NCBI GenBank assembly: GCA_022564195.1
Contig: JADFLW010000003.1
Coordinates: 12,747-76,746 of the forward strand
From: Patescibacteria group bacterium
GTDB taxonomy: Bacteria; Patescibacteriota; Microgenomatia; UBA1400; Chisholmbacteraceae
Length of the DNA stretch: 64,000 bases
Direction: 5' to 3'
The notes below the pieces were generated by a model. It was not told the origin of the DNA, did no database searches, and was given only the letters and a program-made list of their open reading frames with translations. This document shows positions 1 to 64,000 of this stretch, in pieces. The position numbers were made by a program, and so were the translations under genes. How positions within the stretch are numbered: the stretch's first letter is position 1; every line of letters begins with the position of its first letter.

Positions 1-276
1 TGCCATCTTCTACCATCGCAGTCCCGATAGCCTATCTGAGGCATTCAGGCAGGCGAAATGGATGGCACAGCGTCCATACAAGCTGGGGATACTAGGTCGC
101 GGGATTACCATGGCACGAACCTCACTACCGATTTCACTGATTGTCGGCGTTGTGAAAGCCGCTCGATACAAAACGCCATCGTTTATCCTTTTCAAAATCG
201 TCGTTGATTTCGCGTCTTTCTTGGGGATCACACGCATGTTCGTTGGGAGACAACGGGTAAAATAATAGACACCACT

Positions 277-1668
277 GTGATGAAGAAAGTAAAGATCAAC
301 ACTATTGGAGCCATCGTTGTCCTGGCGCTGATTCTGCGGCTTATCGCAATCAATCAATCGCTTTGGCTTGATGAGGCAATCAACCTGATCGCTGCCCGCG
401 ACCTGAGTCTGACAGGCTTGCTGTTTACCTACATGATTGGTGATTTTCATCCTCCGCTATTCCACACCATGCTCTGGGGCTGGTTCAAAATTTTTCCTGC
501 AGGTGAAGTATCAGCAAGAATACCGTCAGTGATCTTTGGTGCTGCAACGGTTGTTGTAACATACAACATTGCAAAGTTAGTGACGAAAGGGGAAAAGTAT
601 CAGTCACATATTTCCCGGCTCTCCGCGTTCCTTCTTGCAACATCGGGCCTCCATATCTACTATTCGCAAGAGGCACGGATGTATGCGCTTGCTGCTTTCT
701 TTACAACCCTCACATTCTTTGCTCTCCTTCAACTCAAAGAGGAACCCTCACCACAAAACAAGGCATTGTTTACAGGATCGTTGGTATTGATGCTTCTGTC
801 TGACTATCAACCCTGGTTGCTCCTTCCACTTTTCTTTGTGCTACGCCCGGGCCTCACCGCATTTGCGACACTCATGACACTCCCGTGGTGGCCAATGCTT
901 TCCCGTCAGATTGAGAGAGGATTAGAAACAACCCAAGCCTTCCCTGCTTGGGAGACAGTGGTGGGGACACTTTCAATAAAGTCGGCGCTACTTGTCCCAG
1001 TGAAATTCATGGTCGGTCGAACCTCAATAGACAACAACCTGATCTTCGCTTTGGCTCTGTTGATACCAGTCAGCGTCGTACTGATAAGCATCTTTAAGGC
1101 CTTTCAAAAAAGAAAATGGTATCGACGCGTACTACAGGGCTGGCTTGCTGTTCCGTTTGTTGTTGCGGCAATAGTCTCACTCAAGATCCCAGTATTTTCC
1201 TACTTCCGATTTCTGTTTGTGCTCCCTGTATTTTATTTGTTGATAGCGCTCGGAGTGACACGCTTGTCTGTGAGATACCAGAAGCTTGCAGTCGCTGTGT
1301 TACTTGTGACCAACATTATTTCTGCTGGAGCCTATCTTTTTCTTCCACGGTTCCATAGGGAAGATTGGAGGGGAATGGTTAACTACGTGCAACAACTCGA
1401 TCCAGCTGGTACCTTGGTTGTGTTTCCCAGTCTTGCACAATCAGCAGCATTTGACTATTACAACACCAACCAACTACGAACTCAAGACAAAAAAACCCTG
1501 GATCTTCATGAAAACGCGGGGACAGTGTTTCTTGTAAGATATGTTAGCGAAATCTTTGATCCCGAGAATCAGTTGGTTGAGGCACTACAACGCAATGGGT
1601 TCGAGAAAGTCAGCGAAGTTGCATTCAGGGGTATTCTCATCTGGCAGTATAAACGAGTTGATCTATGA
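277..1668 (+). CDS. Polytopic membrane glycosyltransferase, GT-C fold (PMT_2/ArnT-like)
   Basis: 463-aa ORF with many hydrophobic spans. The first loop LWLDEAINL...GDFHPPLF resembles the DE...HPPL signature of lipid-carrier-dependent PMT/ArnT-type transferases. Start is GTG 277 or ATG 280. Confidence 0.6.
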   Translation: MMKKVKINTIGAIVVLALILRLIAINQSLWLDEAINLIAARDLSLTGLLFTYMIGDFHPPLFHTMLWGWFKIFPAGEVSARIPSVIFGAATVVVTYNIAKLVTKGEKYQSHISRLSAFLLATSGLHIYYSQEARMYALAAFFTTLTFFALLQLKEEPSPQNKALFTGSLVLMLLSDYQPWLLLPLFFVLRPGLTAFATLMTLPWWPMLSRQIERGLETTQAFPAWETVVGTLSIKSALLVPVKFMVGRTSIDNNLIFALALLIPVSVVLISIFKAFQKRKWYRRVLQGWLAVPFVVAAIVSLKIPVFSYFRFLFVLPVFYLLIALGVTRLSVRYQKLAVAVLLVTNIISAGAYLFLPRFHREDWRGMVNYVQQLDPAGTLVVFPSLAQSAAFDYYNTNQLRTQDKKTLDLHENAGTVFLVRYVSEIFDPENQLVEALQRNGFEKVSEVAFRGILIWQYKRVDL

Positions 1669-2795
1669 GAATCGCAATCGACGTGACCGGAAGCATCTAC
1701 AAAGGCACCGGTGTGGCAACATACTACACCAGTCTTATTCCGAAACTGCTCGAGATCGGTGGTGATCACGAATTCATATTGTTTGGATACTCCCTGCGAC
1801 GCTTCGGCGATCTTACTCTTGCACAACGCAAGTTCCTTTTTCCGCCTAGACTTGCAGAGCTCGTTTGGAACAAACTGCATGTCTTCCCGATAGAAAAGCT
1901 GATTGGCAAATGCGACATTCTCCACGCATGGGACTACATCCAGCCACCGACAGAGAAGGCAAAGCTGGTAACGACCATTCACGACCTCACACCACTGAAA
2001 TTCCCAAAACATCAGCATCCAAGGACGCTCTCCGCATACAAGTCGGGGTTGCATTGGGTAGAAAAGCAAGCCGCAGCGGTCATTGCTGATTCCTACTCCA
2101 CGAAGGAAGACATCGTAAATCTTCTCAAGATTCCCGAGAAAAAGGTTCATGTCGTTTATCTTGCGGCACCCCAAGAGTTTCACGCATTTAGAGGTCAACA
2201 TGAGAATACACAAGACGTGAGCGTAGATCAGGTGAAAAGAAAATACGGGATTGAAGGCGAGTACATCTTGTCCGTTGGGACGCAGGAACCACGCAAGAAT
2301 CTTAATCGCACGATCAAAGCCTATGAGGCGCTGAAGATGGACAAATCACTGGCTATCGTGGGTCAGTTTGGATGGGGAAAAAAGATTAGACCCGTGAAGG
2401 GCGTAAAGATCTTAGGATTCGTTCCAACTGAGGACTTGCCGGCGCTCTACGCAGGGGCCTCGTGTTTTGTCTATCCCTCGTTGTATGAAGGCTTTGGTTT
2501 ACCGGTATTGGAGGCGATGGCCGTCGGCTGTCCGGTTGTGACCTCCGATCGGGGGAGCTTAAGAGAAATAGCGGGCGAAGCCGCAGTTGAGGTGAACCCT
2601 GAATCCATAGAAGCCATTGCCTTCGGTATCAGGGTGGCGCTGGAGAGGGGAGAAGAGTTGAGGGAGAAAGGCATAGCCCAGGCCCAGAAGTACACATGGG
2701 AAGCCACTGCCAGGAAAACGCTGGAAGTCTATGAGAAAATAGGCCGCAGAAAAGTTGAAAGGAAGATAAGAAAAAACGGTAATGAAAAAAGCTGA
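1665..2795 (+). CDS. Glycosyltransferase family 4 (GT-B)
   Basis: 376 aa. C-terminal PSLYEGFGLPVLEAMAVGCPVVTSDRGSLREI is the GT4 E-x7-E region. The start overlaps the upstream stop (ATGA). Confidence 0.85.
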   Translation: MRIAIDVTGSIYKGTGVATYYTSLIPKLLEIGGDHEFILFGYSLRRFGDLTLAQRKFLFPPRLAELVWNKLHVFPIEKLIGKCDILHAWDYIQPPTEKAKLVTTIHDLTPLKFPKHQHPRTLSAYKSGLHWVEKQAAAVIADSYSTKEDIVNLLKIPEKKVHVVYLAAPQEFHAFRGQHENTQDVSVDQVKRKYGIEGEYILSVGTQEPRKNLNRTIKAYEALKMDKSLAIVGQFGWGKKIRPVKGVKILGFVPTEDLPALYAGASCFVYPSLYEGFGLPVLEAMAVGCPVVTSDRGSLREIAGEAAVEVNPESIEAIAFGIRVALERGEELREKGIAQAQKYTWEATARKTLEVYEKIGRRKVERKIRKNGNEKS

Positions 2796-3098
2796 AACCA
2801 AACAACTCGAAGATATCCTCTATGTTGCCCAACTTGCCGCGATGGAAGCAGGCGATTATGCCCTGGAACATTTTATGAGGGTGCATGTCTTAAAAGAAAA
2901 ACCGATGTCAATAGATGAGGTGACCTCATGGCACGTCGCTTCGATCACCCAGCCGGAGCGCTTTTCATCAAGGAAGTAGGAGGGAAAGTTTCAGATACAG
3001 AAGGAAGACCCATCGATTGGAGAGAAACGAAACCGGTCCACATCGTTGCCAGTAACGGCACAATTCACAAGCGATTTTTACAAGTTCTCAAGGAGTAG
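2782..3098 (+). pseudogene. Inositol-monophosphatase-family (SuhB-like) gene remnant; N- and C-terminal pieces in different frames, core missing
   Basis: The 2782-2979 frame starts like an IMPase N-terminus (LEDILYVAQLAAMEAGDYALEHF). A second frame (ATG 2928 to stop 3096-3098) reads MARRFDHPAGALFIKEVGGKVSDTEGRPIDW...VASNGTIHKRFLQVLKE, the WD..AG..L..EAGG..TD / ASNG C-terminal signature. About 150 aa of metal-binding core between them is absent. Confidence 0.5.
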
Positions 3099-3111
3099 GA
3101 ATCGAGAAAGT

Positions 3112-3151
3112 TCTTCTTCTTCGAACAGCGGCCGCAGTGCTGAGAAGAAGA
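3112..3151. terminator. Hairpin between convergent genes
   Basis: 9-bp stem tcttcttct (3112-3120) / agaagaaga (3143-3151) with a 22-nt loop containing gcggccgc. No clear U-tract, so weak. Confidence 0.25.
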
Positions 3152-3291
3152 GAATCAAGGTAGGAAGACAAGGTTCAATAAAGCAGTTTCGAAATGGAAG
3201 ATATTCCAAGAATATACATTGTAGGTAACACGAGAAGAAGGTAGCGAGGGAAGACAACGTGGGTAGATTGAAAAAGAAGATAGATGAGAAT

Positions 3292-4272
3292 TCATCCGAG
3301 AAGAATCTGTGGAGGCTTCAAAGGCAATCTTCGGAATTCTTTTTTCACCAGCAGAGAAAAAGTAGCCAAAATGGCGAGCGGCCAAGCGATCCAATACTCG
3401 GCAACTGGCTGAATCGGGGGTGTTGCGAACCAGGTCCGCCATTTTCCTAAGAAAAGAATCCTCCATATCTCAAACCAGGGATATTCCGGTAAGTACGATC
3501 GATAAAGCCTGGCGATCTTGATATGAAGCGACAAAAAATCCAAAGGAGAGTGAAAAAGAAAAAAGACTGCATAGGAAAGAAGATAGACAGAGAAACTCGA
3601 AGCCGCTACCGAAAAGAGTGCATGTCGCAACTGAGGCACGCGTTTAAGTACCAAGACCACAAGGACAAAAGCCAGAAGCAGCAATCCAGTGAACACAACT
3701 TTAGTTGCCATTGCCAACCCCACGGCAGCGCCAAGAAGCAAGAGGCGTTTTCTTGAGAAGCGTGACCGAGTAAGTAAGGAAAGAGCAAGAAGCACGAACA
3801 CAAGCTGAGGAAGATCCAGATTTACGCTCGTGCTTCGCTCAAGAAACAGTGGATCGAAGACCAAAACAAGTGAGGGAAGAAGATTCAATGGAGTTGAGAC
3901 TGCAACGCGCCGAGCAAGAAGATAAGTGAGGAATACAACCACAAGACTTGCCACAAACTGCACAATCAGAATGTTGCCGAAGGCCAAGATCGAAACTCCA
4001 AAAAGGTATTTGACTAATGGAGGATCTTCGAAGTTAACGACAGAGGGATCTTTTCCGCGAATGTACTCTAAAGCCGCGAATGTCCGAAGGTCTTCGTCGC
4101 TCATGTTGCCGAAGAACTCGTATCCTTGCCCCAAGTTGTATTGTGAATGCAGCCAGATTTGGCGAAGCCGCTCATTGTCGGTGATTTGCATAGGGACATT
4201 TGAGAACGAAAAGACAAGCTTCACGGCAATGACCAATGTAAGAACAAGAGTTGCGACATGCGCTTTTTTCAT
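3292..4272 (-). CDS. Membrane glycosyltransferase, GT-C/PMT_2-like (short form)
   Basis: The ORF track gives 359 aa from 4371. I prefer ATG 4272 (MKKAHVATLVL...) because the extension runs into the divergent gene at 4341. The loop DEDLRTFAALEYIRGKDPSVVNFEDPPLVKYLFG resembles the DE...PPL loop of PMT_2 enzymes. Multiple TM spans. Confidence 0.55.
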   Translation of the reverse strand: MKKAHVATLVLTLVIAVKLVFSFSNVPMQITDNERLRQIWLHSQYNLGQGYEFFGNMSDEDLRTFAALEYIRGKDPSVVNFEDPPLVKYLFGVSILAFGNILIVQFVASLVVVFLTYLLARRVAVSTPLNLLPSLVLVFDPLFLERSTSVNLDLPQLVFVLLALSLLTRSRFSRKRLLLLGAAVGLAMATKVVFTGLLLLAFVLVVLVLKRVPQLRHALFSVAASSFSVYLLSYAVFFLFHSPLDFLSLHIKIARLYRSYLPEYPWFEIWRILFLGKWRTWFATPPIQPVAEYWIAWPLAILATFSLLVKKEFRRLPLKPPQILLG

Positions 4273-4324
4273 CGGCAAGATAGAGTATACACAAGCCCCA
4301 CAATATCCCTGCCACACTCCGTGG

Positions 4325-4333
4325 TGATATACT
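4325..4333 (+). promoter_or_regulatory. Extended -10 (TGaTATACT) 7 nt upstream of ATG 4341; possible leaderless mRNA
   Basis: TG-n-TATACT read directly. The gap to the start codon is 7 nt and there is no SD. Confidence 0.4.
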
Positions 4334-4340
4334 TTAAAGG

Positions 4341-5453
4341 ATGCATCTTGGAATAGACGGCAACGAGGCAAACATCAAACGTCGAGTTGGAAGCAATATC
4401 TACGCCTACGAGCTGCTTTCGTGGTTTCAAAAGTTGGACAAAAAGAGCAATTTCACCATCTATTTGAAGTCACAACCTCTAGATGATCTGCCTAAACCTC
4501 AAGAGAATTGGCAGTACCGTGTTATAAAACCCACTACACTCTGGACGCGCTGGCGATTGCCGCTGGATCTTTACTTGCATCGACCAAAACCCAATGTCTT
4601 TTTCACACCCGGACATTATGCTCCAAAATTCTGCCCAGCACCATTTGCGATTGCTATTATGGATCTCTCTTTCATCCATTTTCCAGAAATGTTTCGTAAG
4701 CAAGACCTCTATAAACTCACCAACTGGTCACGTGATTCAATCCTCCGTGCCGATCACATTTTCACGATCTCGAATTTTAGCAAGGATGATATAATCAAGA
4801 ACTATTCTGTTCCAGAGGAGAAAGTAACGGTAACCTACCCGGGGTTCGATCAAGAAAGATTCGGTAGGAGGATAAGCCCTCAAGAGATCGAGAGGATAAA
4901 AAAAAGGTACAATATCGTTGGGGATTACCTACTCTATGTTGGTACACTACAACCCAGGAAGAACTTGACAAGATTAATCCGAGCCTTCGCTCAGATAAAA
5001 GGTACACATCACAGTCTCGTCATCGCTGGAAAGAAAGGTTGGCTCTATTCGAAAATCCTTGATGAAGGAAAACAACTCGGGGTAGAAGACAGGGTGCGCT
5101 TTATCGGATACGTCACTAACAAGGATGCGCCGGCACTCATGAGTGGCGCAGAAGCTCTGGTCTTGGTGAGCCTCTATGAAGGATTCGGTATTCCGGTTCT
5201 AGAAGCCATGGCACTAGGAATCCCGACGGTCATCTCAGGCACCTCAAGCTTGCCAGAGATAGCAGGGGAAGTAGGAATAATGGTAGATCCCAAAGATGTG
5301 AAAAGCATAACCAGAGGTCTTGATCAGGCAATTCAATTAAATGAATTCCAGAGAAAAGAGAACGCCGTGAAAAGTAAAGTACAAGCAAAGAAGTTTACTT
5401 GGAAGCAAGCAGCCGAGAAAACACTGGAGGTGCTCTATGAGCTCGCCGTTTAA
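4341..5453 (+). CDS. Glycosyltransferase family 4
   Basis: 370 aa with VSLYEGFGIPVLEAMALGIPTVISGTSSLPEI. Confidence 0.85.
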   Translation: MHLGIDGNEANIKRRVGSNIYAYELLSWFQKLDKKSNFTIYLKSQPLDDLPKPQENWQYRVIKPTTLWTRWRLPLDLYLHRPKPNVFFTPGHYAPKFCPAPFAIAIMDLSFIHFPEMFRKQDLYKLTNWSRDSILRADHIFTISNFSKDDIIKNYSVPEEKVTVTYPGFDQERFGRRISPQEIERIKKRYNIVGDYLLYVGTLQPRKNLTRLIRAFAQIKGTHHSLVIAGKKGWLYSKILDEGKQLGVEDRVRFIGYVTNKDAPALMSGAEALVLVSLYEGFGIPVLEAMALGIPTVISGTSSLPEIAGEVGIMVDPKDVKSITRGLDQAIQLNEFQRKENAVKSKVQAKKFTWKQAAEKTLEVLYELAV

Positions 5454-6042
5454 AGATAGAATGGGGAACCAATTGACTTGGAAGGAGGCAATCCCGAAAA
5501 TTGGATTTCGTTTCCAAAGTTACTATCTTGAATTCTTGACAGCACTTCTTTGGTGGTTGGGCTTCCTGCCATCTCACACGGTAAGAAAACTCCTTTTGAA
5601 AGCCGCTGGCATGAAAATCGGGAAGAAATCCTATATCCATATTGGCTTGAGGACTTATGACCCGAGAAATATCACGATTGGTGAGGGGACTATCGTTGGC
5701 GATTACGCTACCCTAGATGGAAGGGACATGTTAGAAATTGGGAATCATGTTGATATTGCATCAGGAGTCATGATCTTCAATGGAAGCCGCGATATCCACA
5801 CAGAAGACTTTACGCTCGTTTTAAAACCAGTCAAGATCGGAAATTATGTATTCATTGGACCAAGAGCAATTATTCTCCCGGGCGTGACAGTCGGGGATGG
5901 TGCAGTCATCGGGGCTGGAGCGGTAGTAACAAAAGATGTCTCGCCAAAAACATTAGTAGGCGGTGTCCCCGCCAAAAAGATTCGAGATCGAGACGTGAAG
6001 GAATTGAAATACCGCTTGGGAAGGGCCAGACTATTTTTCTGA
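5437..6042 (+). CDS. Left-handed beta-helix (hexapeptide-repeat) acetyltransferase with N-terminal TM segment
   Basis: Hexapeptide-like repeats IGEGTIVGDYATLDG and IGPRAIILPGVTVGDGAVIGAGAVV, as in the WbbJ/LacA/CysE class. Confidence 0.8.
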   Translation: MSSPFKDRMGNQLTWKEAIPKIGFRFQSYYLEFLTALLWWLGFLPSHTVRKLLLKAAGMKIGKKSYIHIGLRTYDPRNITIGEGTIVGDYATLDGRDMLEIGNHVDIASGVMIFNGSRDIHTEDFTLVLKPVKIGNYVFIGPRAIILPGVTVGDGAVIGAGAVVTKDVSPKTLVGGVPAKKIRDRDVKELKYRLGRARLFF

Positions 6043-7005: not shown

Positions 7006-8569
7006 CAAGCACATCCTTGAACTACTTTCAGGCCTCCTTTTAGTGTTCATCCCCCTTTATCCGAAATGGCCACTGCTGGATGTGCTCCCAGGCTACATCG
7101 TTCGTCTGCGCCTGGAGGATTTCCTCATTGCCGGCGTCCTCGCCGTGTTTTTAGTTCAGTTATTGCGGAAAAAAGTAAGCGTAAGAGAAAATCCGCTGGC
7201 ACTGCCGATTCTTCTCTATTTAGGAATCGGACTGCTTTCTTCGATTTCAGCGCTTTTCATAACAAAAACTGTTCCCCTGGAAAGAATCCACGTTGCAAAA
7301 TTGTTTCTCCATTGGGCGAGACGAGTCGAGTACATGTCTCTTGCTTTCGTTTTCTTCTCAGCTTTGAAAACGACTCGACAAGTAAGACGGATGGTTACCA
7401 TTCTGGCTCTGGTGATGGTGACAATCACGCTCTACGGGTTTGGGCAGAAGTACTTCCAGTGGCCGGTGTACTCGACAATGAACAGAGAATTTGCCAAAGG
7501 ATGGCGGTTGGTCCTCACTGAAAATGCCAGAGTCCCCTCAACATTCGCAGGCCACTACGACTTTGCAGCCTACAACGTAATCATTCTTGCAGTGCTGGCA
7601 GGCTTGATGTTTCACGGCTCCAAAGCCAGAGTCTCCAAAATAATTATCATCGTCTTCATCGCCGGTTTTGCATCTCTGCTTCTTACCGCCTCAAGGACAT
7701 CATTCATAGCATACTTGGTTGCAGTGAGTGTCGTGATTTTCGCGTTATCATTTCGATACAGCCTAAAGTGGGCAGCAACGCGGTGGGTAGGATTTGTGGC
7801 CCTCAGTCTCATTGGCATGTTGTTCTTCGGAGACCTCTCTCAAAGATTCGAGCATTTTCTCAAACTTGGTCGGATAAAAGACTACATCGCTTTCGAAATA
7901 TTGAATCTGAAGAGTCAAGAACAAGAAAAGGTTAGTCAAACGCAAGTATCTCAAGATTTGGCGCTGGTGTACACAGAAACGGACCAACCTCCAATCCCAG
8001 CAGAGCCAGTTGAGCTCCCGCCTGGGGTGTTTGAGTATATTCCGGAGGCCTTTCCTGAAGCAACCCTCTCAGCGGATGCAGGTCCAGAGGTTGCCACGCT
8101 TGTCGGAAAACCAAGAACCTATTCACCAGCTGCGTTTACCTTCGGATTATCATCAGCAATCCGATTCGATGCGCTCTGGCCCAGGGCATGGAAAGGATTC
8201 TTGAGGAATCCACTGCTCGGAACAGGATATTCAACACTGACCAAGACGCAGCTGACGGAGTTCACCGAAGCAGAGTCGACAGATAACGACTTCTTGCGAG
8301 CCTTAGGCGAAACTGGGATTTTAGGGTTCATGAGCTTCTTTGGAATCTTAGGGTTCGCGCTCGTGACACTCTGGAAAAAGAGAAAGGCAATAGAGGACCC
8401 GTTCTTGTTTGCGCTGACAACAGGAATCGGAGGAGCAATCGTCGGCATGCTCGTCAATGGCCTGTATATAGACGTATTCGAAGCCTCAAAAGTCGCATAC
8501 ACGTTTTGGGCGATGATGGGAATATTATTTGCCTCAATCAGAATAGCAACGAAAAAATCAGTAAAATGA
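6971..8569 (+). CDS. O-antigen ligase/polymerase-like (Wzy_C-type) polytopic membrane protein
   Basis: About 10 hydrophobic spans. TASRTSFIAYLVA and NPLLGTGYST loops resemble the O-antigen-ligase domain. ATG 6971 (MKRIKKLF) preferred to the track start 6941. Confidence 0.65.
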   Translation: MKRIKKLFSWLDKHILELLSGLLLVFIPLYPKWPLLDVLPGYIVRLRLEDFLIAGVLAVFLVQLLRKKVSVRENPLALPILLYLGIGLLSSISALFITKTVPLERIHVAKLFLHWARRVEYMSLAFVFFSALKTTRQVRRMVTILALVMVTITLYGFGQKYFQWPVYSTMNREFAKGWRLVLTENARVPSTFAGHYDFAAYNVIILAVLAGLMFHGSKARVSKIIIIVFIAGFASLLLTASRTSFIAYLVAVSVVIFALSFRYSLKWAATRWVGFVALSLIGMLFFGDLSQRFEHFLKLGRIKDYIAFEILNLKSQEQEKVSQTQVSQDLALVYTETDQPPIPAEPVELPPGVFEYIPEAFPEATLSADAGPEVATLVGKPRTYSPAAFTFGLSSAIRFDALWPRAWKGFLRNPLLGTGYSTLTKTQLTEFTEAESTDNDFLRALGETGILGFMSFFGILGFALVTLWKKRKAIEDPFLFALTTGIGGAIVGMLVNGLYIDVFEASKVAYTFWAMMGILFASIRIATKKSVK

Positions 8570-18755: not shown

Positions 18756-20111
18756 ATGGCAAAATTAGAGGAAGTCGTTGCACTCGCTAAACGCCGGGGG
18801 TTTGTTTATCCCGGAAGCGAGATTTATGGGGGTTTAAAGGGTTTTTGGGATTATGGACCTCTTGGAGTTGAATTGAAAAATAATATCAAAAGCGCATGGT
18901 GGAACGAAATGGTTTACGGGCGTGACGATGTTGTGGGGATTGACGCGGCCATAATCATGAATCCCAAAGTTTGGGAAGTATCCGGTCATACAGAAGCATT
19001 CACAGATCCTTTAGTTGAGTGCAAAAAGTGTCATAAGCGATTTAGAGAAGATCATGTTGAAGAGAGAAAAAAAATTCATAAAAAGATTCGTTACAAGACT
19101 AAAGGAGTAAGTAATATTACACTTACAAATGAAGATAAGTATTATTTATTTTGTTCTGATGGAGTAAGTCACGAATTTACAGAGCCGAGAGTTTTCAATC
19201 TATTAACAGAGGTTTTTTTGGGTGTCACTGAGCCCAAACAAAAAACATATCTTAGGGGAGAAGTTACTCAAGGAGTTTTTGTGAACTTTAAGAATATTCT
19301 TGATTCGACTTCTATGAAAGTCCCTTTTGGAATAGCGCAGATAGGAAAGGCGTTCAGAAATGAAATTACTCCGGGGAATTTTACTTACAGAACTCGTGAG
19401 TTTGAGCAGATGGAGCTTGAGTATTTCATCAAGCCAGATGAACAGCAAGCTGAAAAAACATTTGAGTACTGGAAAAAGGAGCGGATGGATTGGTATATTT
19501 CTTTGGGCATGACAAAAGAGAACTTACGTTTTAGAAAGCATGGGAAAGACGAAAGAGCACATTATGCAAAGTTTGCTGAGGACATTGAGTACAAAGCGCC
19601 TTTTGGTTGGAGTGAGTTTGAGGGGATTCATCACAGAGGAGATTGGGATTTGGGAAGGCACAAATTATCTTATAAAGATGATGAAACTGGAAAAGAATAT
19701 ACTCCTTGGGTTATAGAGACATCTGGTGGTGTTGATCGGTCTACCCTGTTTTTCTTAATTGACGCATATTATAAGGCTAAAGATAGGGTGGTTCTTAGAC
19801 TCCACCCCCGTCTTGCTCCTTACAAAGTAGCTGTTTTTCCGTTGTTGGCCAATAAGCCAAAGCTTGTCGAAAAAGCAAGGAAGGTCTTCGGCAAGCTCAG
19901 ACTCTCGTTTCACTCGACCTGGGATGATCGGGGTAACATCGGAAAGCGATACTACGCGCAAGACGAAATCGGGACCCCCTGGTGTGTGACAATTGACTTT
20001 AAAACCTTGGATGATGATACGGTGACGGTACGGGATCGCGACACGACCAAGCAGGAGCGTGTGAACATCACCAAACTGATAGCGTATTTCGATGAAAGGC
20101 TTAAAACCTAA
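18756..20111 (+). CDS. glyQS: Glycine--tRNA ligase, class II dimeric type
   Basis: RRGFVYPGSEIYGGLKGFWDYGPLGVELKNNIK and FRNEITPGNFTYRTREFEQMELEYF motifs. Confidence 0.95.
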   Translation: MAKLEEVVALAKRRGFVYPGSEIYGGLKGFWDYGPLGVELKNNIKSAWWNEMVYGRDDVVGIDAAIIMNPKVWEVSGHTEAFTDPLVECKKCHKRFREDHVEERKKIHKKIRYKTKGVSNITLTNEDKYYLFCSDGVSHEFTEPRVFNLLTEVFLGVTEPKQKTYLRGEVTQGVFVNFKNILDSTSMKVPFGIAQIGKAFRNEITPGNFTYRTREFEQMELEYFIKPDEQQAEKTFEYWKKERMDWYISLGMTKENLRFRKHGKDERAHYAKFAEDIEYKAPFGWSEFEGIHHRGDWDLGRHKLSYKDDETGKEYTPWVIETSGGVDRSTLFFLIDAYYKAKDRVVLRLHPRLAPYKVAVFPLLANKPKLVEKARKVFGKLRLSFHSTWDDRGNIGKRYYAQDEIGTPWCVTIDFKTLDDDTVTVRDRDTTKQERVNITKLIAYFDERLKT

Positions 20112-32474: not shown

Positions 32475-32525
32475 TAAAGGGGAAGGGAGGTGGTTGGGAA
32501 GCAAAAATAGCAAAGAAGCGTGTGG

Positions 32526-32720
32526 TCCCGATAGCGCTGGCGCTTATCGGGAATACGAGGAAGGGGGATCCCCCGACATCACGTCGGGGGGATCGGACTC
32601 CCGGTGTAAAATACCGGGGAGAATCTGCGGAGACCCCCTGGTTGTTCGGCCAACCACAACGGACGGATCAAAACCTCGCAGTAATGTGGGAGACAGAGTC
32701 CAACCGAAGCCGAAAGGGTT
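32526..32720 (+). ncRNA. Candidate glmS-ribozyme-like structured 5' leader
   Basis: Lies in the 349-nt gap directly upstream of glmS. GC-rich nested helices include tcccgat 32526-32532 / atcggga 32546-52. Strings AGCGC (32533), ACGAGGA (32555) and CGGACUCCCGG (32594) recall the glmS ribozyme core. P1 would be nearly absent, so the call is uncertain. Confidence 0.4.
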
Positions 32721-51476: not shown

Positions 51477-51485
51477 TGATATAAT
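51477..51485 (+). promoter_or_regulatory. Extended -10 (TGaTATAAT) 11 nt upstream of tRNA-Val
   Basis: Read directly. Confidence 0.5.
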
Positions 51486-51496
51486 ACGAGATGGTT

Positions 51497-51572
51497 GGGC
51501 TCATAGCTCAATCGGCAGAGTGCTTCGTTCACATCGAAGAGGTTCCAGGTTCGAGTCCTGGTGAGCCCACCA
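51497..51572 (+). tRNA. tRNA-Val (anticodon CAC), CCA encoded
   Basis: 76-nt cloverleaf by eye. Acceptor GGGCUCA/UGAGCCC, D-stem GCUC/GAGU, anticodon stem CUUCG/CGAAG with loop UUCACAU, T-arm CCAGG-UUCGAGU-CCUGG, discriminator A, then CCA. Confidence 0.9.
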
Positions 51573-51574
51573 AT

Positions 51575-51910
51575 ATGAAAATCGTCTCTCTCGAGAAACT
51601 CAAAGATGAACCGCTGACTCACAGTCCTAAGATCAAGAAACGGGTTTTGCTAAAAAAAGGAGAGGTTCCTCATCTGACAAGTTTCTCACAAGCCACTTTC
51701 AAGCCTGGACAAATCGCCAGCGAACACGTCCATGAGGATATGTACGAAGTCTATTTAGTTCAAGGTGGAACGGGCCTGATCAAAGTCGATGGAAAAGTAC
51801 ACCAACTCAAAAAAGGCGACTGCGTGATGACTGAGCCAGGAGAGAACCACGAATTCATCAACACCGGCTCCGAGGACTTAGTCCTCACCTACTTCGGAAT
51901 ACAAAAGTAA
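51575..51910 (+). CDS. Cupin-domain protein
   Basis: Two cupin motifs: GQIASEHVHEDMYEVYLVQG and GDCVMTEPGENHEFIN. ATG 51575 is used because the track start 51491 overlaps the tRNA. Confidence 0.8.
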   Translation: MKIVSLEKLKDEPLTHSPKIKKRVLLKKGEVPHLTSFSQATFKPGQIASEHVHEDMYEVYLVQGGTGLIKVDGKVHQLKKGDCVMTEPGENHEFINTGSEDLVLTYFGIQK

Positions 51911-52001
51911 AGGAAATTCTTCTTAGGGAAAAAAGAAACCAAATAAGAACGCGTGTATGTAGGGATTGAAGAGAAAGAGAAAGCCAAACCCCAAAAAGGG
52001 G

Positions 52002-52032
52002 AGGTGAGATAGGCTCAGAGCCCACCTCACCT
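52002..52032 (-). terminator. Candidate intrinsic terminator of the island operon
   Basis: Minus strand: AGGUGAG-17 nt-CUCACCU followed by CCCCUUUUUGGGGUUUGG, about 170 nt after the stop of the last gene. Confidence 0.4.
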
Positions 52033-52199
52033 GTTCTCTCGCCGCCTCACAAGGCCATTGTAGGCCCAGAGTCCCAGGCCTCCCGCACATAGTGGGAAGA
52101 CGGAGGAAAATGACGAGATTGCTCAACACCTCTCGCACTTCAGTAAGCTCATGGATGCGATCCGACCGATAGCTAAGCGGCCGTGTGATCACGAGCGCG

Positions 52200-53639
52200 T
52201 CAGCTCTCCGCAACAGCTGCTGGGCGAGCAGGAGCCGGACGTCCGAGCCCGAGCTCCTCGGCGTAGTAGGTGATCGGTTTATCCCTCGTCTCCCTGATGA
52301 GGTCCTTTTGGGCGAACACCCACCGATTGGTAGCCTCATTGCCATTCCAGTAGACAGCTTTCACCCGCTTGATTTCGTCATACTGATCACTGGTGGTAAG
52401 GTTTTTAAGCTTCCGGCACTTCGACCTACCCACATTGATCTTCGGATGGTCAGCTAAAGGGTTGTCGGTGAACAACCACAAGAGAGTCGAGAGCGAAAGC
52501 ATCTTCTCCCGAGCAAAGTAGGCTTCGGTGGTCTGCTCCCCTCCTTGCTCATAGAGAACGTCGACGATGAGTGTCAGGCTTCGTTCCTTGCCGTCTCCGT
52601 TCGGCCGCGAGTCCCTGTACTGGCCTTTGATCGCCAGAAGCTCTGTGCCAAAGGCGATTGATTGGACGGAAATGGCTCCCGGAATCCAAGGCTGGCCTTC
52701 GGTTTTGAAGTCGCCTTCCGTTCTGAAGACCGGGCTGCGGGAATGGCCCTGGACGACCTTCGTCCCCGAGGTCTTGATCGCGATCACGCGTTTCCCGGAA
52801 GCCGTCAGCCGCCGAGCGCGCTTGATGAAAAACTCTCCCATCTGCACCCAGGCGAACATCGGGGTGACCCCTTCTGGCGCAGCATAGAGCTCCACTCGAG
52901 GATCTTCCAGATGGCCCATGAACAGCATATCATCGCTGAGGTCCGTGTAGTCCTCTTCCCGCTCTCCGGCGATGCAGGCCATGAGATGAAAGTCTGAGTA
53001 CTGATCCTCCTCCATCATCAACATCGCTGCCCTAAAAATCGCCCGTAGATTCATGGTCTTGCCAACTCCACCTGGACCGGCAATCCATAGACCGTGGCCT
53101 TCGCCGAGCGGCCATCCGCCACGGAAAATGATCCCGAGGACAGGTTCGTACTCTTCGTCCCAGGAAACCCGGCGATCGAAGTAGTCGAGTGGAAGAGGTT
53201 TGTTGGGATAGCGGCCGAAGATCTTGTTCTGATCCTCCTCGTCCGGCTTCGCAACCAAAGTGGGCCAATTTCGGACCACCGCAGCGTCCGTTTCCCCGTT
53301 GACGGAAATGATCTGAGTGATAGGGTCCGGAGGAACCTCTTCCTCGTTGTCGGATCTGCTGCTCGATCTGTCAGGCGGCTCCCGATAGAGGATAAGATCC
53401 CCTTCCCGTAATCCCCACAGCTCCACAGTAGGGGAAGGAATGAATCGGCCCCTTGCAAGGGACTCAGCAAAAATCTCACTCCTGGGGAATTTCGCCAACT
53501 TCTTGGCGTTTGGCGGGATGACCACCGTATCTGGAGTTCCCCATTTGCCGTATACAGGTCTCTGGCTCTGAGGGAGCTCCGAGAGGGGTCGTTGTAGTAC
53601 CAACCCACGCTTCGGTTTATCATCTTGTGTACTCAACAC
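52200..53639 (-). CDS. Divergent Rho-family ATPase homologue (Rho-like OB region + RecA-fold ATPase)
   Basis: By-eye collinearity with E. coli Rho:
- LREGDLILYREPP...IISVNGE vs LRTGDTISGKIRPP...KVNEVN;
- GLWIAGPGGVGKTMNL vs GLIVAPPKAGKTMLL;
- ACIAGEREEDYTDL vs LLIDERPEEVTEM;
- FIKRARRLTASGKRVIAI vs VIEKAKRLVEHKKDVIIL;
- SLTLIVDVL vs SLTIIATAL.
GTG 53639 (SD GGAAAGGAG 8 nt upstream) preferred to ATG 53699. Confidence 0.6.
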   Translation of the reverse strand: MLSTQDDKPKRGLVLQRPLSELPQSQRPVYGKWGTPDTVVIPPNAKKLAKFPRSEIFAESLARGRFIPSPTVELWGLREGDLILYREPPDRSSSRSDNEEEVPPDPITQIISVNGETDAAVVRNWPTLVAKPDEEDQNKIFGRYPNKPLPLDYFDRRVSWDEEYEPVLGIIFRGGWPLGEGHGLWIAGPGGVGKTMNLRAIFRAAMLMMEEDQYSDFHLMACIAGEREEDYTDLSDDMLFMGHLEDPRVELYAAPEGVTPMFAWVQMGEFFIKRARRLTASGKRVIAIKTSGTKVVQGHSRSPVFRTEGDFKTEGQPWIPGAISVQSIAFGTELLAIKGQYRDSRPNGDGKERSLTLIVDVLYEQGGEQTTEAYFAREKMLSLSTLLWLFTDNPLADHPKINVGRSKCRKLKNLTTSDQYDEIKRVKAVYWNGNEATNRWVFAQKDLIRETRDKPITYYAEELGLGRPAPARPAAVAES

Positions 53640-53647
53640 AAGTCTTT

Positions 53648-53679
53648 CTCCTTTCCTAGTGGGCCTCAGGCCCAACCGG
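53648..53679 (-). promoter_or_regulatory. Leader hairpin + SD motif (copy 1, before the Rho-like gene)
   Basis: RNA sense: CGGUU-GGGCC-UGA-GGCCC-ACUA-GGAAAGGAG-8 nt-GUG. Confidence 0.6.
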
Positions 53680-53720
53680 TCAGTCCGTTTTCCAGTCATT
53701 GCTGGATTGGGAACAGGCTA

Positions 53721-53750
53721 CCCTCTAGTAGTGGGCCTCTGGTCCAAAAG
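53721..53750 (-). promoter_or_regulatory. Leader hairpin motif (extra upstream copy, imperfect)
   Basis: RNA sense: UUGGACC-AGA-GGCCC-ACUACUAGAGGG, with one mismatch in the stem. Confidence 0.45.
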
Positions 53751-53996
53751 GAAATCTCTAGAGAGCATTCCGTTCCCAATCCGTACGCGTTCTTATTTGG
53801 TTGTCAAGGAGCTAATGCGAAGCATAAGCTCCGCACCCGCCAATATTTTTCGAGGGAGTATACGGCTGACTAAGCAGTAAGCCGACCATCGATAAAATAT
53901 GGTGGGAAAGTGCTATCCCGCTCAAGCGGGATCCAAATGCCCGCCCCAACAAACGCCAAATGTCTGTTTGCAGGCGTCTTATAAATTGTCAATTTT

Positions 53997-54063
53997 CCTC
54001 TGTTTCGCCCTCCGTAGCTTTAGCGTAGGGGGCTCATCAGTCAGCCTTTGGCTGAAACAGAAA
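53997..54063 (-). ncRNA. Hammerhead ribozyme motif, type III (HHR-C)
   Basis: RNA sense: UUUCUGU-U|UCAGCC-AAA-GGCUGA-CUGAUGA-GCCCCCUACGCUAAAGCUACGGAGGGC-GAAA-CAGAGG. Full catalytic core. Stems I and II are closed and stem III is open. Confidence 0.8.
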
Positions 54064-54225
54064 ACAACACAACAAAATCAAACTACAACCCCCTTCACAC
54101 AAACAAACAAACAAACAATTCATCAACCCCGCAAATGGGATTGAGATGTCTGCCGAATTTCGGTGAAGAGAGGGTGAGGGAGGGATCCCAAACTTCGGGA
54201 TCCCATTCCCATGTCAACGTCCCTC

Positions 54226-54576
54226 TTAGGACCGCCACGGTCTTCGGCCTATCCATTCGGCTGTTGGGAGGTCATTCCCGCGCCATCGTCCGTTGGATCG
54301 CAATGGATCCTCATTGACGACCTGACGTAAAAGCCCAATGGAAAGGGCGATCGCGCCGATGATGCCAACGAAAACGGCCAGGAAGCTCGAAACCAAACGC
54401 GAGAGTAGTGGAATGGACTCCACCAAATCTCGCTGAGCCGACGTTAACTCGCCGCCCGACGGAAAGCCAAATGCCGCAAACACATGAAGCGCGAATATGC
54501 CTCCCAGGAAAGGTAGGAGCAAATGAGGCCGATGAAAAGTGCTAAATGGACTCGGAAGTACCAGTCCGAAAACCAT
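54226..54576 (-). CDS. Small two-TM membrane protein (gene model uncertain)
   Basis: 116 aa. SD-like GAGGAG lies 9 nt before the ATG. Two hydrophobic spans (LLLPFLGGIFALHVFAAFGF, VSSFLAVFVGIIGAIALSIGLL). Overlaps the alternative model 54444-54677 in another frame. Confidence 0.4.
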   Translation of the reverse strand: MVFGLVLPSPFSTFHRPHLLLPFLGGIFALHVFAAFGFPSGGELTSAQRDLVESIPLLSRLVSSFLAVFVGIIGAIALSIGLLRQVVNEDPLRSNGRWRGNDLPTAEWIGRRPWRS

Positions 54577-54677
54577 TTCGGTACGCTCCTCTCATTCGGC
54601 TCTTTCCTCTTAGCTCCCAAAGGAGCACGTCCGCGATTCTTGCCGTTTCCCGCGATCCAACCCCTCAAAGTGATCAA
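54444..54677 (-). CDS. Alternative small one-TM ORF starting at UUG after a leader hairpin (gene model uncertain)
   Basis: The leader motif GGUUUGGCC-AGA-GGCCAA-CUACGAAGGGAGGAAGGAU sits directly before in-frame TTG 54677. 77 aa with one hydrophobic span. Confidence 0.35.
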   Translation of the reverse strand: MITLRGWIAGNGKNRGRAPLGAKRKEPNERSVPKWFSDWYFRVHLALFIGLICSYLSWEAYSRFMCLRHLAFRRAAS

Positions 54678-54679
54678 AT

Positions 54680-54716
54680 CCTTCCTCCCTTCGTAGTTGG
54701 CCTCTGGCCAAACCGG
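54680..54716 (-). promoter_or_regulatory. Leader hairpin + SD motif (copy 2)
   Basis: RNA sense: CGGUU-UGGCC-AGA-GGCCA-ACUACGAAGGGAGGAAGGA. Confidence 0.55.
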
Positions 54717-54914
54717 ATACTGGAACGCTTCATTGGGCGATTGATCCCGAATGAAGGATAAAACGGATAAGTCCGGGAGGAGCAGGTTCGAGAGAACCCA
54801 ACTCCTCTTTTTTTGGCTAGCGCCGATCAGATCAAGAGCAAGAGCAATGCATACCCCAGCCATTTCAACTGAACGTTTTGGAACATGATCGCTCCTTCCA
54901 TCGAATCGTCGTGA

Positions 54915-56537
54915 CTAAGACGACGAATCGTTCTCATCAACCTCTCGGAGTTGAGACGGTCTGGTTCGACCGCCTGACGATTTCCCGCGACGAAGCCGTA
55001 GCGAGACGCGCCCCCGTGACACCGCGGTATCCCCCGACGCCAAAGCGCTATCGTCGACTTCGCGTAGGGTAGAGGATCTCTTCGCCGGCTGCGCAACCTC
55101 CGGTGGTTGAGCCACATCCGTGACCCGATCCACCACAGTCGGCTGCAGTTCACGATACTTCTCTTGCACGTATCGCGCCTCGATGTCGGCGATGTGCCAT
55201 CCCTGACCGAGCAACCGGGCAAACAGCCTGAGCGTAATACCAGAGCGAAGGCAGAACGCGATCGCGTCGTCCCTCTCAAGACCAGCGTCTTCGATGCGCT
55301 TACGCTTGTAGAAGGTATCGCTGTCCCACAGCGCTTCGAGCTCTGCGCGAAATTTCGCGTTGTCTTGCTTGAGCTCGTCAAGCGAGCGGGTGATCACCGG
55401 ACGGCCCGGGAGTTCATCAGAGAACTCCTCCTGAACCTCCGCAATGGTGACCCCAGGCATAGCCAGTTCTTGCCCGATCTCGAAGCCTTCAAAGCTCCAA
55501 TGATCGGGATCCTCGACTGTGGCCTCGTCAATCGTGGAGGGTTCTGCCTTGATCCGAAGCAGGGCGTCGTAATGAACCATCACTGCCTGGAAAGCCTCCT
55601 CCGCCTGCGCATCGGTCGCGCCTCCAGCAAGGGCCTCCACTCCAGCTGCATTCGCTCGACTCTCAGCTGTGCCTCGAAGCTGTAGCATGAACGCTGCGCG
55701 TCGTCGAATCTTGCCCCGAGCATTCATGAAAGCGACGGCATTCTCCCTGTAGAGAGCCAAGTCGTGTGCCCGTGGCCCGGCCCTGGAGGGGAAGCTCAAG
55801 CTCATGACATCCTCTTTCTGGAATCTGCGCTTGTTCCACCACTTCCTGAGTCGACTCGTCTTGATATCATTATCGAGCAGGTCAGGATCGGTGCGGGCCA
55901 ACACGTCTTCGATCATCGTCGTCGGCGTCGCCGAGATATACATATCCTCCCCGGCCTTGAATAGGCTGGGAATGGTGACACCGCCTTTGCGATGTCGCAT
56001 CTCATCAGTGTAGATGAGATACCTGTCTTGGCGTTGCTGCCAGCGAAGGACGTGGTACGTAAGCGTCGGCGTGAGGAACGCAAGCACAGGCCACGCCCAA
56101 AACGCCATCCCCCATTCGGGGGCCGATGGGTCGATCAACTTGAAATCGGGGACGTCTGGCGAAACCGTGATCGCCGCTACAAATGCGCCCAACGCCAAAT
56201 TGATGAACGACACCGTGACAGCCAGGAGAAACGGCCCAAAGATGCTAAAACCGAAGGCGAAGGGAGACCATTTGAGAAACTCCGGCCAAACGTACGCCTT
56301 CTTGCTCATTTCCAGCACCTTTTCAAGCCTAACTCCTGCCTCGAGTTCGCGCGTCCGCTTCTTCTCACTCACGAGGAAGAAAAAGTCGAAGACACGCTGG
56401 ATCACCTTCTCCCCGAAAGGGAAGATCATCAGTGTTGCAGAGAAGATGATCCAGACGCAAACCACGATGATGGCAAGGCCAACATACGCGGCTGCATCCG
56501 ACGGAAGTACCTCTGAAAGGAACTCTTCGAACGTCAC
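54915..56537 (-). CDS. Membrane protein with about 4 N-terminal TM spans and a large soluble C-terminal domain; function unknown
   Basis: 540 aa. GTG start 8 nt after SD GAAGGAG. No nucleotide-binding motif seen. Confidence 0.6.
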   Translation of the reverse strand: MTFEEFLSEVLPSDAAAYVGLAIIVVCVWIIFSATLMIFPFGEKVIQRVFDFFFLVSEKKRTRELEAGVRLEKVLEMSKKAYVWPEFLKWSPFAFGFSIFGPFLLAVTVSFINLALGAFVAAITVSPDVPDFKLIDPSAPEWGMAFWAWPVLAFLTPTLTYHVLRWQQRQDRYLIYTDEMRHRKGGVTIPSLFKAGEDMYISATPTTMIEDVLARTDPDLLDNDIKTSRLRKWWNKRRFQKEDVMSLSFPSRAGPRAHDLALYRENAVAFMNARGKIRRRAAFMLQLRGTAESRANAAGVEALAGGATDAQAEEAFQAVMVHYDALLRIKAEPSTIDEATVEDPDHWSFEGFEIGQELAMPGVTIAEVQEEFSDELPGRPVITRSLDELKQDNAKFRAELEALWDSDTFYKRKRIEDAGLERDDAIAFCLRSGITLRLFARLLGQGWHIADIEARYVQEKYRELQPTVVDRVTDVAQPPEVAQPAKRSSTLREVDDSALASGDTAVSRGRVSLRLRRGKSSGGRTRPSQLREVDENDSSS

Positions 56538-56545
56538 ATCTCACA

Positions 56546-56575
56546 CTCCTTCGTAGTGGGACTCTGTCCCAACCG
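56546..56575 (-). promoter_or_regulatory. Leader hairpin + SD motif (copy 3)
   Basis: RNA sense: CGGUU-GGGAC-AGA-GUCCC-ACUACGAAGGAG-8 nt-GUG. Confidence 0.6.
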
Positions 56576-56782
56576 AATGAACCATACGCGTCGTTGCGCG
56601 TGGGCTCGAAAATGAACCCGACGGAGTCGGGGCCACATTAGAGCCCACTGCCTGACACGCAGGCACTCTCTACGAATGATCAATTCCCATCTTTCCTTTC
56701 TATAATCTTGTTGTGTTGTCAAAGTGCGTATCCCTCGCCCGTATACCACGCTCGCATTGAGCAGGTTTGAGTTTGGAATGTA

Positions 56783-56854
56783 TTCTGTTTCGTCCCTCCA
56801 TAGCTTATTAGCGACGGGGGACTCATCAGGTCCGACGTATATCGGACGACAGAA
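56783..56854 (-). ncRNA. Hammerhead ribozyme motif, type III (HHR-B)
   Basis: RNA sense: UUCUGU-C|GUCCG-AUAUACGU-CGGAC-CUGAUGA-GUCCCCCGUCGCUAAUAAGCUAUGGAGGGAC-GAAA-CAGAA. Classical GUC cleavage triplet. Confidence 0.85.
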
Positions 56855-63997: not shown

Positions 63998-64000
63998 TCA

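Follow-up and report, generated by a model that had tools for sequence, protein, structure and literature searches.

Integrative and conjugative elements (ICEs) of monoderm bacteria (MPF-FATA type) include ICEBs1, Tn916, the DDE-transposase TnGBS elements and the Mycoplasma ICEs, and the layout of a monoderm conjugation system is a VirB4-type ATPase gene followed by a cell-wall hydrolase gene, with polytopic and small membrane proteins encoded upstream. The mobile elements that Candidate Phyla Radiation (CPR) bacteria carry are poorly known. In the published view, CPR type IV secretion genes are fixed in the chromosome and have little conjugative potential (PMC12102498); the Patescibacteria loci, which were found by VirB4 profiles, form one clade and are conserved chromosomal loci often located near dnaA, and M23 domains have been reported among their VirB1-like proteins (PMC12102498). 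Here we analyzed a 64,000-nt stretch of DNA from a Patescibacteria group bacterium, an ultra-small organism that has not been cultivated (contig JADFLW010000003.1, positions 12,747 to 76,746 of the forward strand; this whole stretch is called the window, and coordinates refer to it). Very probably, a Microgenomates-type Patescibacteria chromosome here adjoins an element of at least ~22.6 kb that was acquired horizontally and integrated into it, the island of this report, and the true right-hand junction of the two is located within 51,911-52,000.

An earlier note on this DNA had described a sharp compositional junction after the cupin gene, and this was borne out by G+C content, G+C content at third codon positions (GC3) and tetranucleotides. 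In 1-kb steps, the G+C content was 0.44-0.51 over positions 1-52000, with a single dip to 0.40 at 19-20 kb, and 0.52-0.62 over 52001-64000. A likelihood change-point scan of the whole window placed the single best break after 51997 (2-lnL support interval 51944-52063, log-likelihood ratio 141.7), so that the G+C content steps from 0.480 on the left to 0.566 on the right. GC3 was 0.48-0.56 in the eight host genes tested (0.527 in the cupin gene) and 0.60-0.70 in eight island genes, an excess of 0.10-0.15. The comparison of k-mer and G+C profiles that the earlier note had suggested likewise placed the cupin gene with the host, its tetranucleotide score (+0.105) being close to that of the host chunks (mean +0.111), and placed a Rho-like gene (-0.070) and p540 (-0.109) with the island chunks (mean -0.095). 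The dip at 19001-20000 lies within a 451-aa open reading frame (ORF) of the host region (18756-20111).

The two host landmarks of the earlier note also stood. ARAGORN and Rfam (tRNA model, 68.3 bits) identified a tRNA-Val(cac) gene at 51497-51572 on the plus strand, whose 3′ end faces the island, 355 nt from its terminus. The last host gene (51575-51910, plus strand, G+C content 0.455, MCH7951390.1; the NCBI protein accessions of the region run from MCH7951384 to MCH7951390) encodes a host-like cupin of 111 aa (Pfam Cupin_2, 1.9e-17). Because the conservation shared by the whole family of related elements ends at a T-run there, the end of the island was set at ~51,928, 17-30 nt past the stop codon of the cupin gene, and this agrees with the switch to island-type sequence within about 30 nt that had been noted earlier. 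Judged from the alignment, the junction is inside the 17-nt spacer 51911-51927, which extends from the cupin stop codon to the first base conserved in the island family, or at its right edge. The change point falls ~70 nt deeper than the conserved end because the terminal stretch is A/T-rich.

The terminus itself (51928-51955, minus strand) reads, on the island strand, CGCGTTCTTATTTGGTT and then TCTTTTTT, and it contains the distal copy (51937-51954) of a perfect 18-nt inverted repeat, AACCAAATAAGAACGCGT, whose proximal copy is located at 53785-53802, so that the two copies bracket the Rho-like gene. The 16-nt core of the repeat, ACCAAATAAGAACGCG, has exactly two occurrences in the window. A scan of metagenome contigs for this core returned 120 stretches, eight of which carried a Rho-like gene as judged by tblastn, whereas two motif matches in IMG/VR carried no island gene. 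This end motif is thus a practical search handle, since the one scan recovered every other member found. Four distinct elements could be told apart: that of the window and, on unrelated metagenome contigs, the Trp group (L009, L105, L130, L198, L171, L116 and L184, from several samples), L191 and L119. The longer motif contigs also carried the genes for p803, the M23 peptidase and p540 in the same order, and L130 those for p592 and p184 in addition; the island proteins were 24-48% identical to those of the other elements.

In all four elements, both motif copies flank the Rho-like gene, and of these eight copies, six have an identical core and two deviate from it by one base. It occupies the same terminal position in L009, L105, L198, L171, L116, L191 and L119. 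In L009, whose Rho-like homologue is 48% identical, the repeat lies in the same two places (408-426 and 2054-2072), and the copies were located at 8509-8524 and 10152-10167 in L105, 8190-8205 and 9673-9688 in L191, and 1401-1416 and 3021-3036 in L119. When the terminal regions of the four elements were aligned in gene orientation, the distal copy and the T-run were the last conserved bases. All four share CGCGTTCTTATTTGGT plus the T-run (51,928-51,955 in the window), with host DNA of lower G+C content directly after it, so that the G+C content falls at the terminus in every element. This host DNA carries the cupin gene in the window, toxin-antitoxin genes and a tRNA-Trp gene in the Trp group, and a 301-aa gene followed by thrS-infC-rplT-pheS in L191; related copies are hence found in different genomic contexts (L105, L198, L009, L171 and L116 of the Trp group, L191, and L119). 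Between the tRNA-Trp gene and the end of the related element, the place that the cupin gene has in the window, lie genes for a YafQ-like toxin and its antitoxin (L198, 8409-8974; L009, 2226-2785).

The proximal copy abuts a TTGACA hexamer (53802-53807; whole feature 53785-53807, minus strand) upstream of the Rho-like gene, and the four-element alignment is conserved there as cyTTGACAACCAAATAAGAACGC. A DNA-binding protein encoded by the element may bind the motif, which would be the end site of a recombinase or transposase or else the site of a combined regulator and excision factor; this would explain why the same site is present at the end of the element and at the promoter region of its terminal gene. 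Transposase end sites, and factors acting as both excisionase and repressor, are possible parallels. Inversion of the Rho cassette between the repeats was considered and rejected, given that its orientation is identical in all four elements. Pairing of the two copies as RNA is unlikely if the hexamer is a promoter element, since transcription would then not include the upstream copy.

The last gene of the island (52200-53699, minus strand), which is read toward the host junction, encodes a protein of 499 aa (491 aa in other gene calls). Its sequence identifies it as a divergent Rho homologue that would be neither the housekeeping Rho nor an orthologue of it. Searches of the PDB with the single sequence returned nothing usable and profiles were required: a five-sequence profile matched Rho with E = 6.6e-26 over profile positions 67-398, which span all of the RecA-type ATPase domain and some of the N-terminal region. 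A Walker A motif (GPGGVGKT) is present together with DERxE-like and LLDS-like motifs, and Pfam ATP-synt_ab was matched in four of the five family members. The NCBIfam Rho models, searched with the single sequence, gave 5e-5 and scores far under their cut-offs (22.7 bits against 628, and 18.7 against 509). The protein also differs from Rho in being encoded on a mobile-looking island, in having a handful of relatives (two close ones among 5.8 billion clustered proteins in a word-indexed search) and in the conserved inverted repeat that flanks its gene. On the 3′ side of the gene, a terminator scan detected two terminator-like hairpins (51988-52032, minus strand; stems 52032-52002 and 52005-51988) with T-rich tails, and L009 has a comparable hairpin (GAGGAAAGGTGAG/CTCACCTTTCCTC).

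All genes between 52,200 and 63,956 are on the minus strand, and the island fills the window up to position 64000, so that its other end lies beyond the window, as the earlier note had stated. Contigs L005 and L217 extend the island by at least 10.5 kb past the window end, and the island DNA examined below consists of 51,928-64,000 of the window plus 1-10,000 of L217 (~22.6 kb, a part of the element). Upstream of the Rho-like gene are a 139-aa ORF of no recognised family (54444-54863), which was also called as a gene in other assemblies, and the gene for p540 (54915-56537), which by hydropathy has two N-terminal membrane-spanning segments (tblastn, 37% identity to L105/L130 and 27% to L191). 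A membrane-anchored M23 peptidoglycan peptidase of 487 aa with an N-terminal hydrophobic segment (56944-58407; Pfam Peptidase_M23, 7.7e-17; 47% to L105/L130) is encoded directly downstream of p803 (58417-60828). The start codon of p803 is probably downstream of the listed TTG, and others call a protein of 785 or 766 aa. Upstream of p803, the hydropathy scan revealed p127 (61243-61626) with two to three membrane segments, the polytopic p592 (61619-63397; 38% to L130) with six hydrophobic segments and a long Arg/Gly/Pro-rich tail, and p184 (63402-63956) with three membrane segments, which was also matched by tblastn and after which the island continues past the window end. From their positions and hydropathy, p127 could be the counterpart of VirB3 and p592 that of VirB6. 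With p592, Pfam, PHROGs and NCBIfam gave no family match, and across all island proteins these three collections yielded nothing beyond the M23 peptidase and weak matches of the P-loop or Rho kind.

The p803 protein is VirB4-like in its predicted fold. An exhaustive HMMER search recovered 32 relatives among 1.84 billion representative proteins, and a word-indexed protein search recovered none, even with a profile. AlphaFold2 with a 28-sequence alignment gave a model with a predicted local-distance difference test score (pLDDT) of 77.8 and a predicted template modelling score of 0.73 (single-sequence prediction, pLDDT 34.6). The eleven best Foldseek matches of this model all came from the R388 type IV secretion system and were TrwK/VirB4 chains in full length (E 2e-14 to 6e-11, 754-835 aligned columns). 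The VirB4-type families of Pfam and NCBIfam matched neither p803 nor its 27 relatives, and nothing like it was found in IMG/VR (alignment search included), or by tblastn in PLSDB plasmids and INPHARED phages. Few relatives and no match to a VirB4 sequence model mean that p803 is not the common Patescibacteria VirB4. By this predicted fold the island would have the VirB4-family ATPase of an ICE, and a hydrolase and polytopic membrane proteins are encoded beside it. No coupling protein (VirD4 or TcpA family) was found in the island DNA examined: apart from p803 its one P-loop protein is the Rho-like ATPase, a member of a different RecA-type clade. The membrane proteins, the VirB4-like ATPase and the M23 peptidase suggest a present or former island for conjugation or type IV secretion, which would have moved by conjugation. 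In L217, positions 1-5847 (~4-10 kb past 64000) contain a 3,564-nt tandem duplication of four genes (462, 110, 142 and 64 aa), with copies 99.7% identical over 2,283 aligned nt; the 462-aa protein is itself internally duplicated, and the assemblies all end in or near this duplication.

In order to compare the locus with related genomes, as the earlier note had proposed, 80 relative loci were fetched from GTDB genomes by ParB match (56-67% identity); the best matches were metagenome-assembled genomes of Woesebacteria, Beckwithbacteria, Collierbacteria and similar groups. The order L27, ParB, signal peptidase S26 (reverse strand) and tRNA-Val was kept in ~60 of the 80. None of them had a cupin gene after tRNA-Val, none was matched by any island protein in tblastn, and the adjacency seen in the window was absent from all 80. 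The island is thus absent from the same locus in these relatives, which are distant (at most 67% ParB identity). Downstream of tRNA-Val they carry a recurring cell-envelope set (a membrane protein, a large secreted protein, a methyltransferase, glycosyltransferases and a flippase) that, apart from generic glycosyltransferase matches, was not found elsewhere in the window. Given this variable glycosylation gene set, the site downstream of tRNA-Val may be a variable region generally. In many Microgenomates-type relatives (L012-L090), the 7 kb after tRNA-Val had a lower G+C content than the 7 kb before it; examples are L013, with 0.512 before the tRNA and 0.445 after it, and L048, with 0.420 and 0.337.

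The alternative that survives best, although we regard it as unlikely, is that the element entered through a tyrosine integrase at the 3′ end of tRNA-Val, so that the cupin gene would be cargo and the true boundary would lie at ~51,572 and not at 51,928. The 3′ end of tRNA-Val does face the island, and two of the three elements with readable flanks sit less than 1 kb downstream of a tRNA 3′ end with host-like genes in between, the Trp-group element being ~820 nt from tRNA-Trp in the same geometry. If ~4.5% of a 1-Mb genome is that near a tRNA gene, the chance of such proximity is roughly 0.006. A preference for tRNA neighbourhoods is therefore plausible, whereas the data do not support an insertion within the tRNA gene. 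That no relative has the cupin gene after tRNA-Val would fit with cargo, but genes that start 1-5 nt past tRNA-Val are common in this lineage, so that a cupin gene directly after the tRNA is not unusual. The cupin gene is host-like in G+C content, GC3 and tetranucleotides, the toxin-antitoxin segment beside tRNA-Trp is likewise host-like in its low G+C content, and the conservation of the family ends at 51,928. In addition, L191 has no tRNA gene within 8 kb, and no integrase was found in the island DNA examined.

The earlier note had pointed to a 9-nt match between the tRNA 3′ end and the island, and GAGCCCACC is indeed present at 51563-51571 and at 52018-52026, but it does not hold as an attachment core. 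Six of 100 shuffles of the window gave at least two copies of the 9-mer, and 77 of 5000 shuffles of 51911-52200 gave a match of at least 9 nt to the last 30 nt of the tRNA, i.e., a nominal p of ~0.015-0.06 across both tests, of which the lower value speaks for tRNA targeting. The island copy falls ~65-90 nt within the conserved terminus, where it forms part of a hairpin stem in the terminator that follows the Rho-like gene. The match is probably due to chance, and as an attachment core it was rejected, being near chance level and internal to the element; no such repeat stands beside tRNA-Trp either. The observation that the junction is not in the tRNA itself was correct, as the host-like cupin gene lies between the tRNA and the terminus. 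Neither feature expected of a tRNA-targeted island, a junction within the tRNA gene or a duplicated 3′ segment, was seen, and no repeat of the junction (51480-51990) or of the tRNA was found in ~22 kb of the island DNA.

We consider it distinctly improbable that the region is a fixed chromosomal Patescibacteria type IV secretion locus that merely differs in composition and is not mobile. Such genes are widespread in Patescibacteria, chromosomal, often near replication-origin genes and mostly relaxase-free (PMC12102498); here, parB adjoins the island locus, and no mobility gene was found in the island DNA examined. A fixed locus would not be expected in three host neighbourhoods (tRNA-Val/parB, tRNA-Trp and thrS-infC-rplT-pheS), nor to be missing at this locus from 80 relatives. 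The GC3 excess over the host genes, the conserved terminal motif exactly at the junction, and the rarity of p803 together with its lack of a VirB4 model match also argue against it.

An integrated prophage is less probable still. The one-directional gene layout is compatible with it, the M23 peptidase matches phage endolysin and tape-measure families in PHROGs, and hammerhead ribozymes, candidates for which are described below, occur in phage genomes. However, capsid, portal, terminase and tail families were not found with PHROGs and Pfam, the M23 domain being the only PHROGs match, and the large ATPase has a predicted fold that is VirB4-like and not that of a terminase. The island had no match in IMG/VR, INPHARED or PLSDB, i.e., it is not a catalogued phage or plasmid.

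The earlier note had left open whether the step is an island boundary or a chimeric assembly. Other assemblies, apparently of the same sample, were recovered by exact-protein look-ups (ERZ23499034 scaffold_563 of 33 kb, ERZ24945681 made with SPAdes, ERZ27267515 made with MEGAHIT, and a Logan contig of SRR12886464), and L001-L008 were compared to the window by blastn. Contigs from three other assemblers (scaffold_563, SPAdes NODE_5198 and MEGAHIT k141_244085) were unbroken across the junction with 99.86-99.93% identity, and the host-side contigs were continuous from 45,642 or earlier to 54,239, that is, 2.3 kb into the G+C-rich DNA. The sole discontinuity (54,239/54,269) falls inside the island: every other assembly of the sample breaks at 54240-54268, 29 nt that are ten N in scaffold_563 and are present as sequence in the window, and the island-only contigs all end at 54,269. 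A coverage gap at ~4x depth is suspected there; the contig names give similar coverages, 4.03 for the host-side contig and 4.30 for the island contig. The join is independently backed, because single contigs from other samples (L105, L198 and L191) carry the same order of p540, small gene, Rho-like gene, terminal motif and host DNA. At 52 kb, therefore, the contig is no chimera, and the 12 kb of G+C-rich DNA are part of this organism's genome; contiguity, absence in relatives and the shared end motif all speak for the boundary. An artificial joining of host DNA to an unrelated G+C-rich element is scarcely credible, since the low coverage, the apparent single sample of the spanning contigs and the real discontinuity bridged only by 10 N in scaffold_563 are outweighed by a composition junction (~52.0 kb) 2.2 kb inside unbroken contigs of three assemblers, by a host-side contig on which an island-type repeat, the Rho-like gene and the two copies of the motif are already present, and by the gene order in L105, L198 and L191, which supports both joins.

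Several points nevertheless weigh against an acquired mobile element. Its far end, and hence any target-site or attachment-site repeat, is outside every contig examined, and the available part has no repeat of the junction. The nearest island-free genomes have only 56-67% ParB identity, so that a true empty site from a close relative was not obtained, and when such a site was sought through exact matches to the cupin and signal peptidase, only contigs of the same sample were returned. The assemblies that span the junction, all at ~4x, seem to derive from that one sample and are therefore independent as assemblies and not as reads. The VirB4 likeness of p803 rests on a predicted structure that the VirB4 sequence models do not match, and Pfam, NCBIfam and PHROGs revealed neither an integrase or transposase nor a relaxase or coupling protein in the ~22.6 kb. 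Finally, most of the type IV secretion loci published for Patescibacteria have a fixed place in the chromosome and no relaxase, so that a type IV secretion set alone is no proof of mobility (PMC12102498).

Each of the three long intergenic regions of the island carries, on the minus strand, a motif of the type III hammerhead. Motif 1 (53997-54063) matched the full Rfam Hammerhead_3 model (1-54) with 37.3 bits, short of the 48.5 bits needed for gathering (E = 4e-5 when 13 kb were searched, 1.9e-6 when 600 nt were), and folds as a three-way junction. Motif 2 (56778-56860) has a CUGAUGAG...CGAAAC core, and its minimum-free-energy fold is the canonical three-way junction (z = -4.7). Motif 3 (61001-61088), with a long stem II, was recognised by alignment, core and structural scan. 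Motifs 2 and 3 were not reported by cmscan; they have the core and the three-stem topology in common and differ in the sequences of stems I and II. The fold energy was better than that of shuffled sequence for motifs 1 and 2 only. Like RF00008, the motifs, here in three copies, have CUGAUGA and GAAA cores, a GUC or GUU cleavage triplet and three stems that close on stem III; unlike RF00008, the Rfam score is below the gathering threshold, because of the long stem II inserts, and the motifs are located in the intergenic leaders of an integrated bacterial element. No hammerhead was found in the three related elements.

These leaders also share repeated blocks with 79-89% identity (56603-56862 against 60784-61090) that comprise a hairpin, the hammerhead and a GCACTTTGACAACACAACAAGA block, the last of which resembles TTGACAACCAAATAAGA of the inverted repeat. 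The terminator scan detected a hairpin, TCAATCCCATTTGCGGGGTTGA, with a T-rich tail at 54123-54144 (minus strand), which is conserved in L009 (~195-215). It falls within the first copy of a repeat family, D3 (54107-54144, 61120-61157 and 63880-63917), which contains a terminator-like hairpin (AATCCCATTTGCGGGGTT) that L009 has as well. Among the host sequences, positions 32506-32716 on the plus strand matched the known glmS ribozyme/riboswitch family (Rfam RF00234) above its gathering score (55.8 bits).

The inverted repeat might be bound by a protein in two places, the end of the element and the promoter region of its terminal gene, and the Rho-like motor might replace the coupling-protein or relaxase function by handling single-stranded nucleic acid in transfer, or alternatively might insulate the element from host transcription. 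We advance as tentative, and by no means as the likelier outcome, the proposal that a rare family of mobile Patescibacteria islands for type IV secretion is recognised here through its first member, with a hexameric Rho-family translocase as terminal gene and an almost invariant 16-bp inverted repeat that brackets this gene and also marks the end; in the present member, self-cleaving hammerheads would cut long transcripts between gene blocks. The family looks to move between Patescibacteria-type genomes with a VirB4-like machine that is invisible to sequence profiles and with a private Rho homologue; if true, this would add a new route of gene flow in Patescibacteria. In a literature search, whose coverage was incomplete, neither an element of this kind nor a conjugative element with a Rho homologue was found described, and the same held for hammerheads in these bacteria.

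The island resembles the Patescibacteria type IV loci (Quinonero-Coronel et al. 2025, PMC12102498) in its phylum, its monoderm-type gene set, a peptidase beside virB4 and no relaxase; it differs from them in having no VirB4 profile match, in a family of ~32 representative sequences, in its sharp composition boundary, in its absence from 80 relatives and in its varied host contexts. With the tRNA-associated tyrosine-integrase islands it shares a location downstream of a tRNA 3′ end, a sharp step in G+C content and absence from relatives, whereas a host-like gene lies between the tRNA and the junction, neither an integrase nor a convincing repeat of the tRNA 3′ end was found in the island DNA, and one family member is not near any tRNA. 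Unlike the monoderm ICEs, it lacks a recognisable integrase or transposase, relaxase and FtsK/VirD4-type coupling protein in the 22.6 kb, is VirB4-bearing by fold only, has a second copy of the end motif internally (1.8 kb in) and has a Rho homologue as terminal gene; we know of no ICE backbone that includes one. Like them, it is integrated, compositionally distinct and intergenic near a tRNA, with a short conserved end sequence as in ICEs with terminal inverted repeats, and it has a one-directional module with polytopic membrane proteins, a VirB4-type ATPase followed by a hydrolase, and small membrane proteins. As a boundary, the junction is ordinary, and the island itself is unusual, apparently an undescribed variant of the integrated type IV secretion element.

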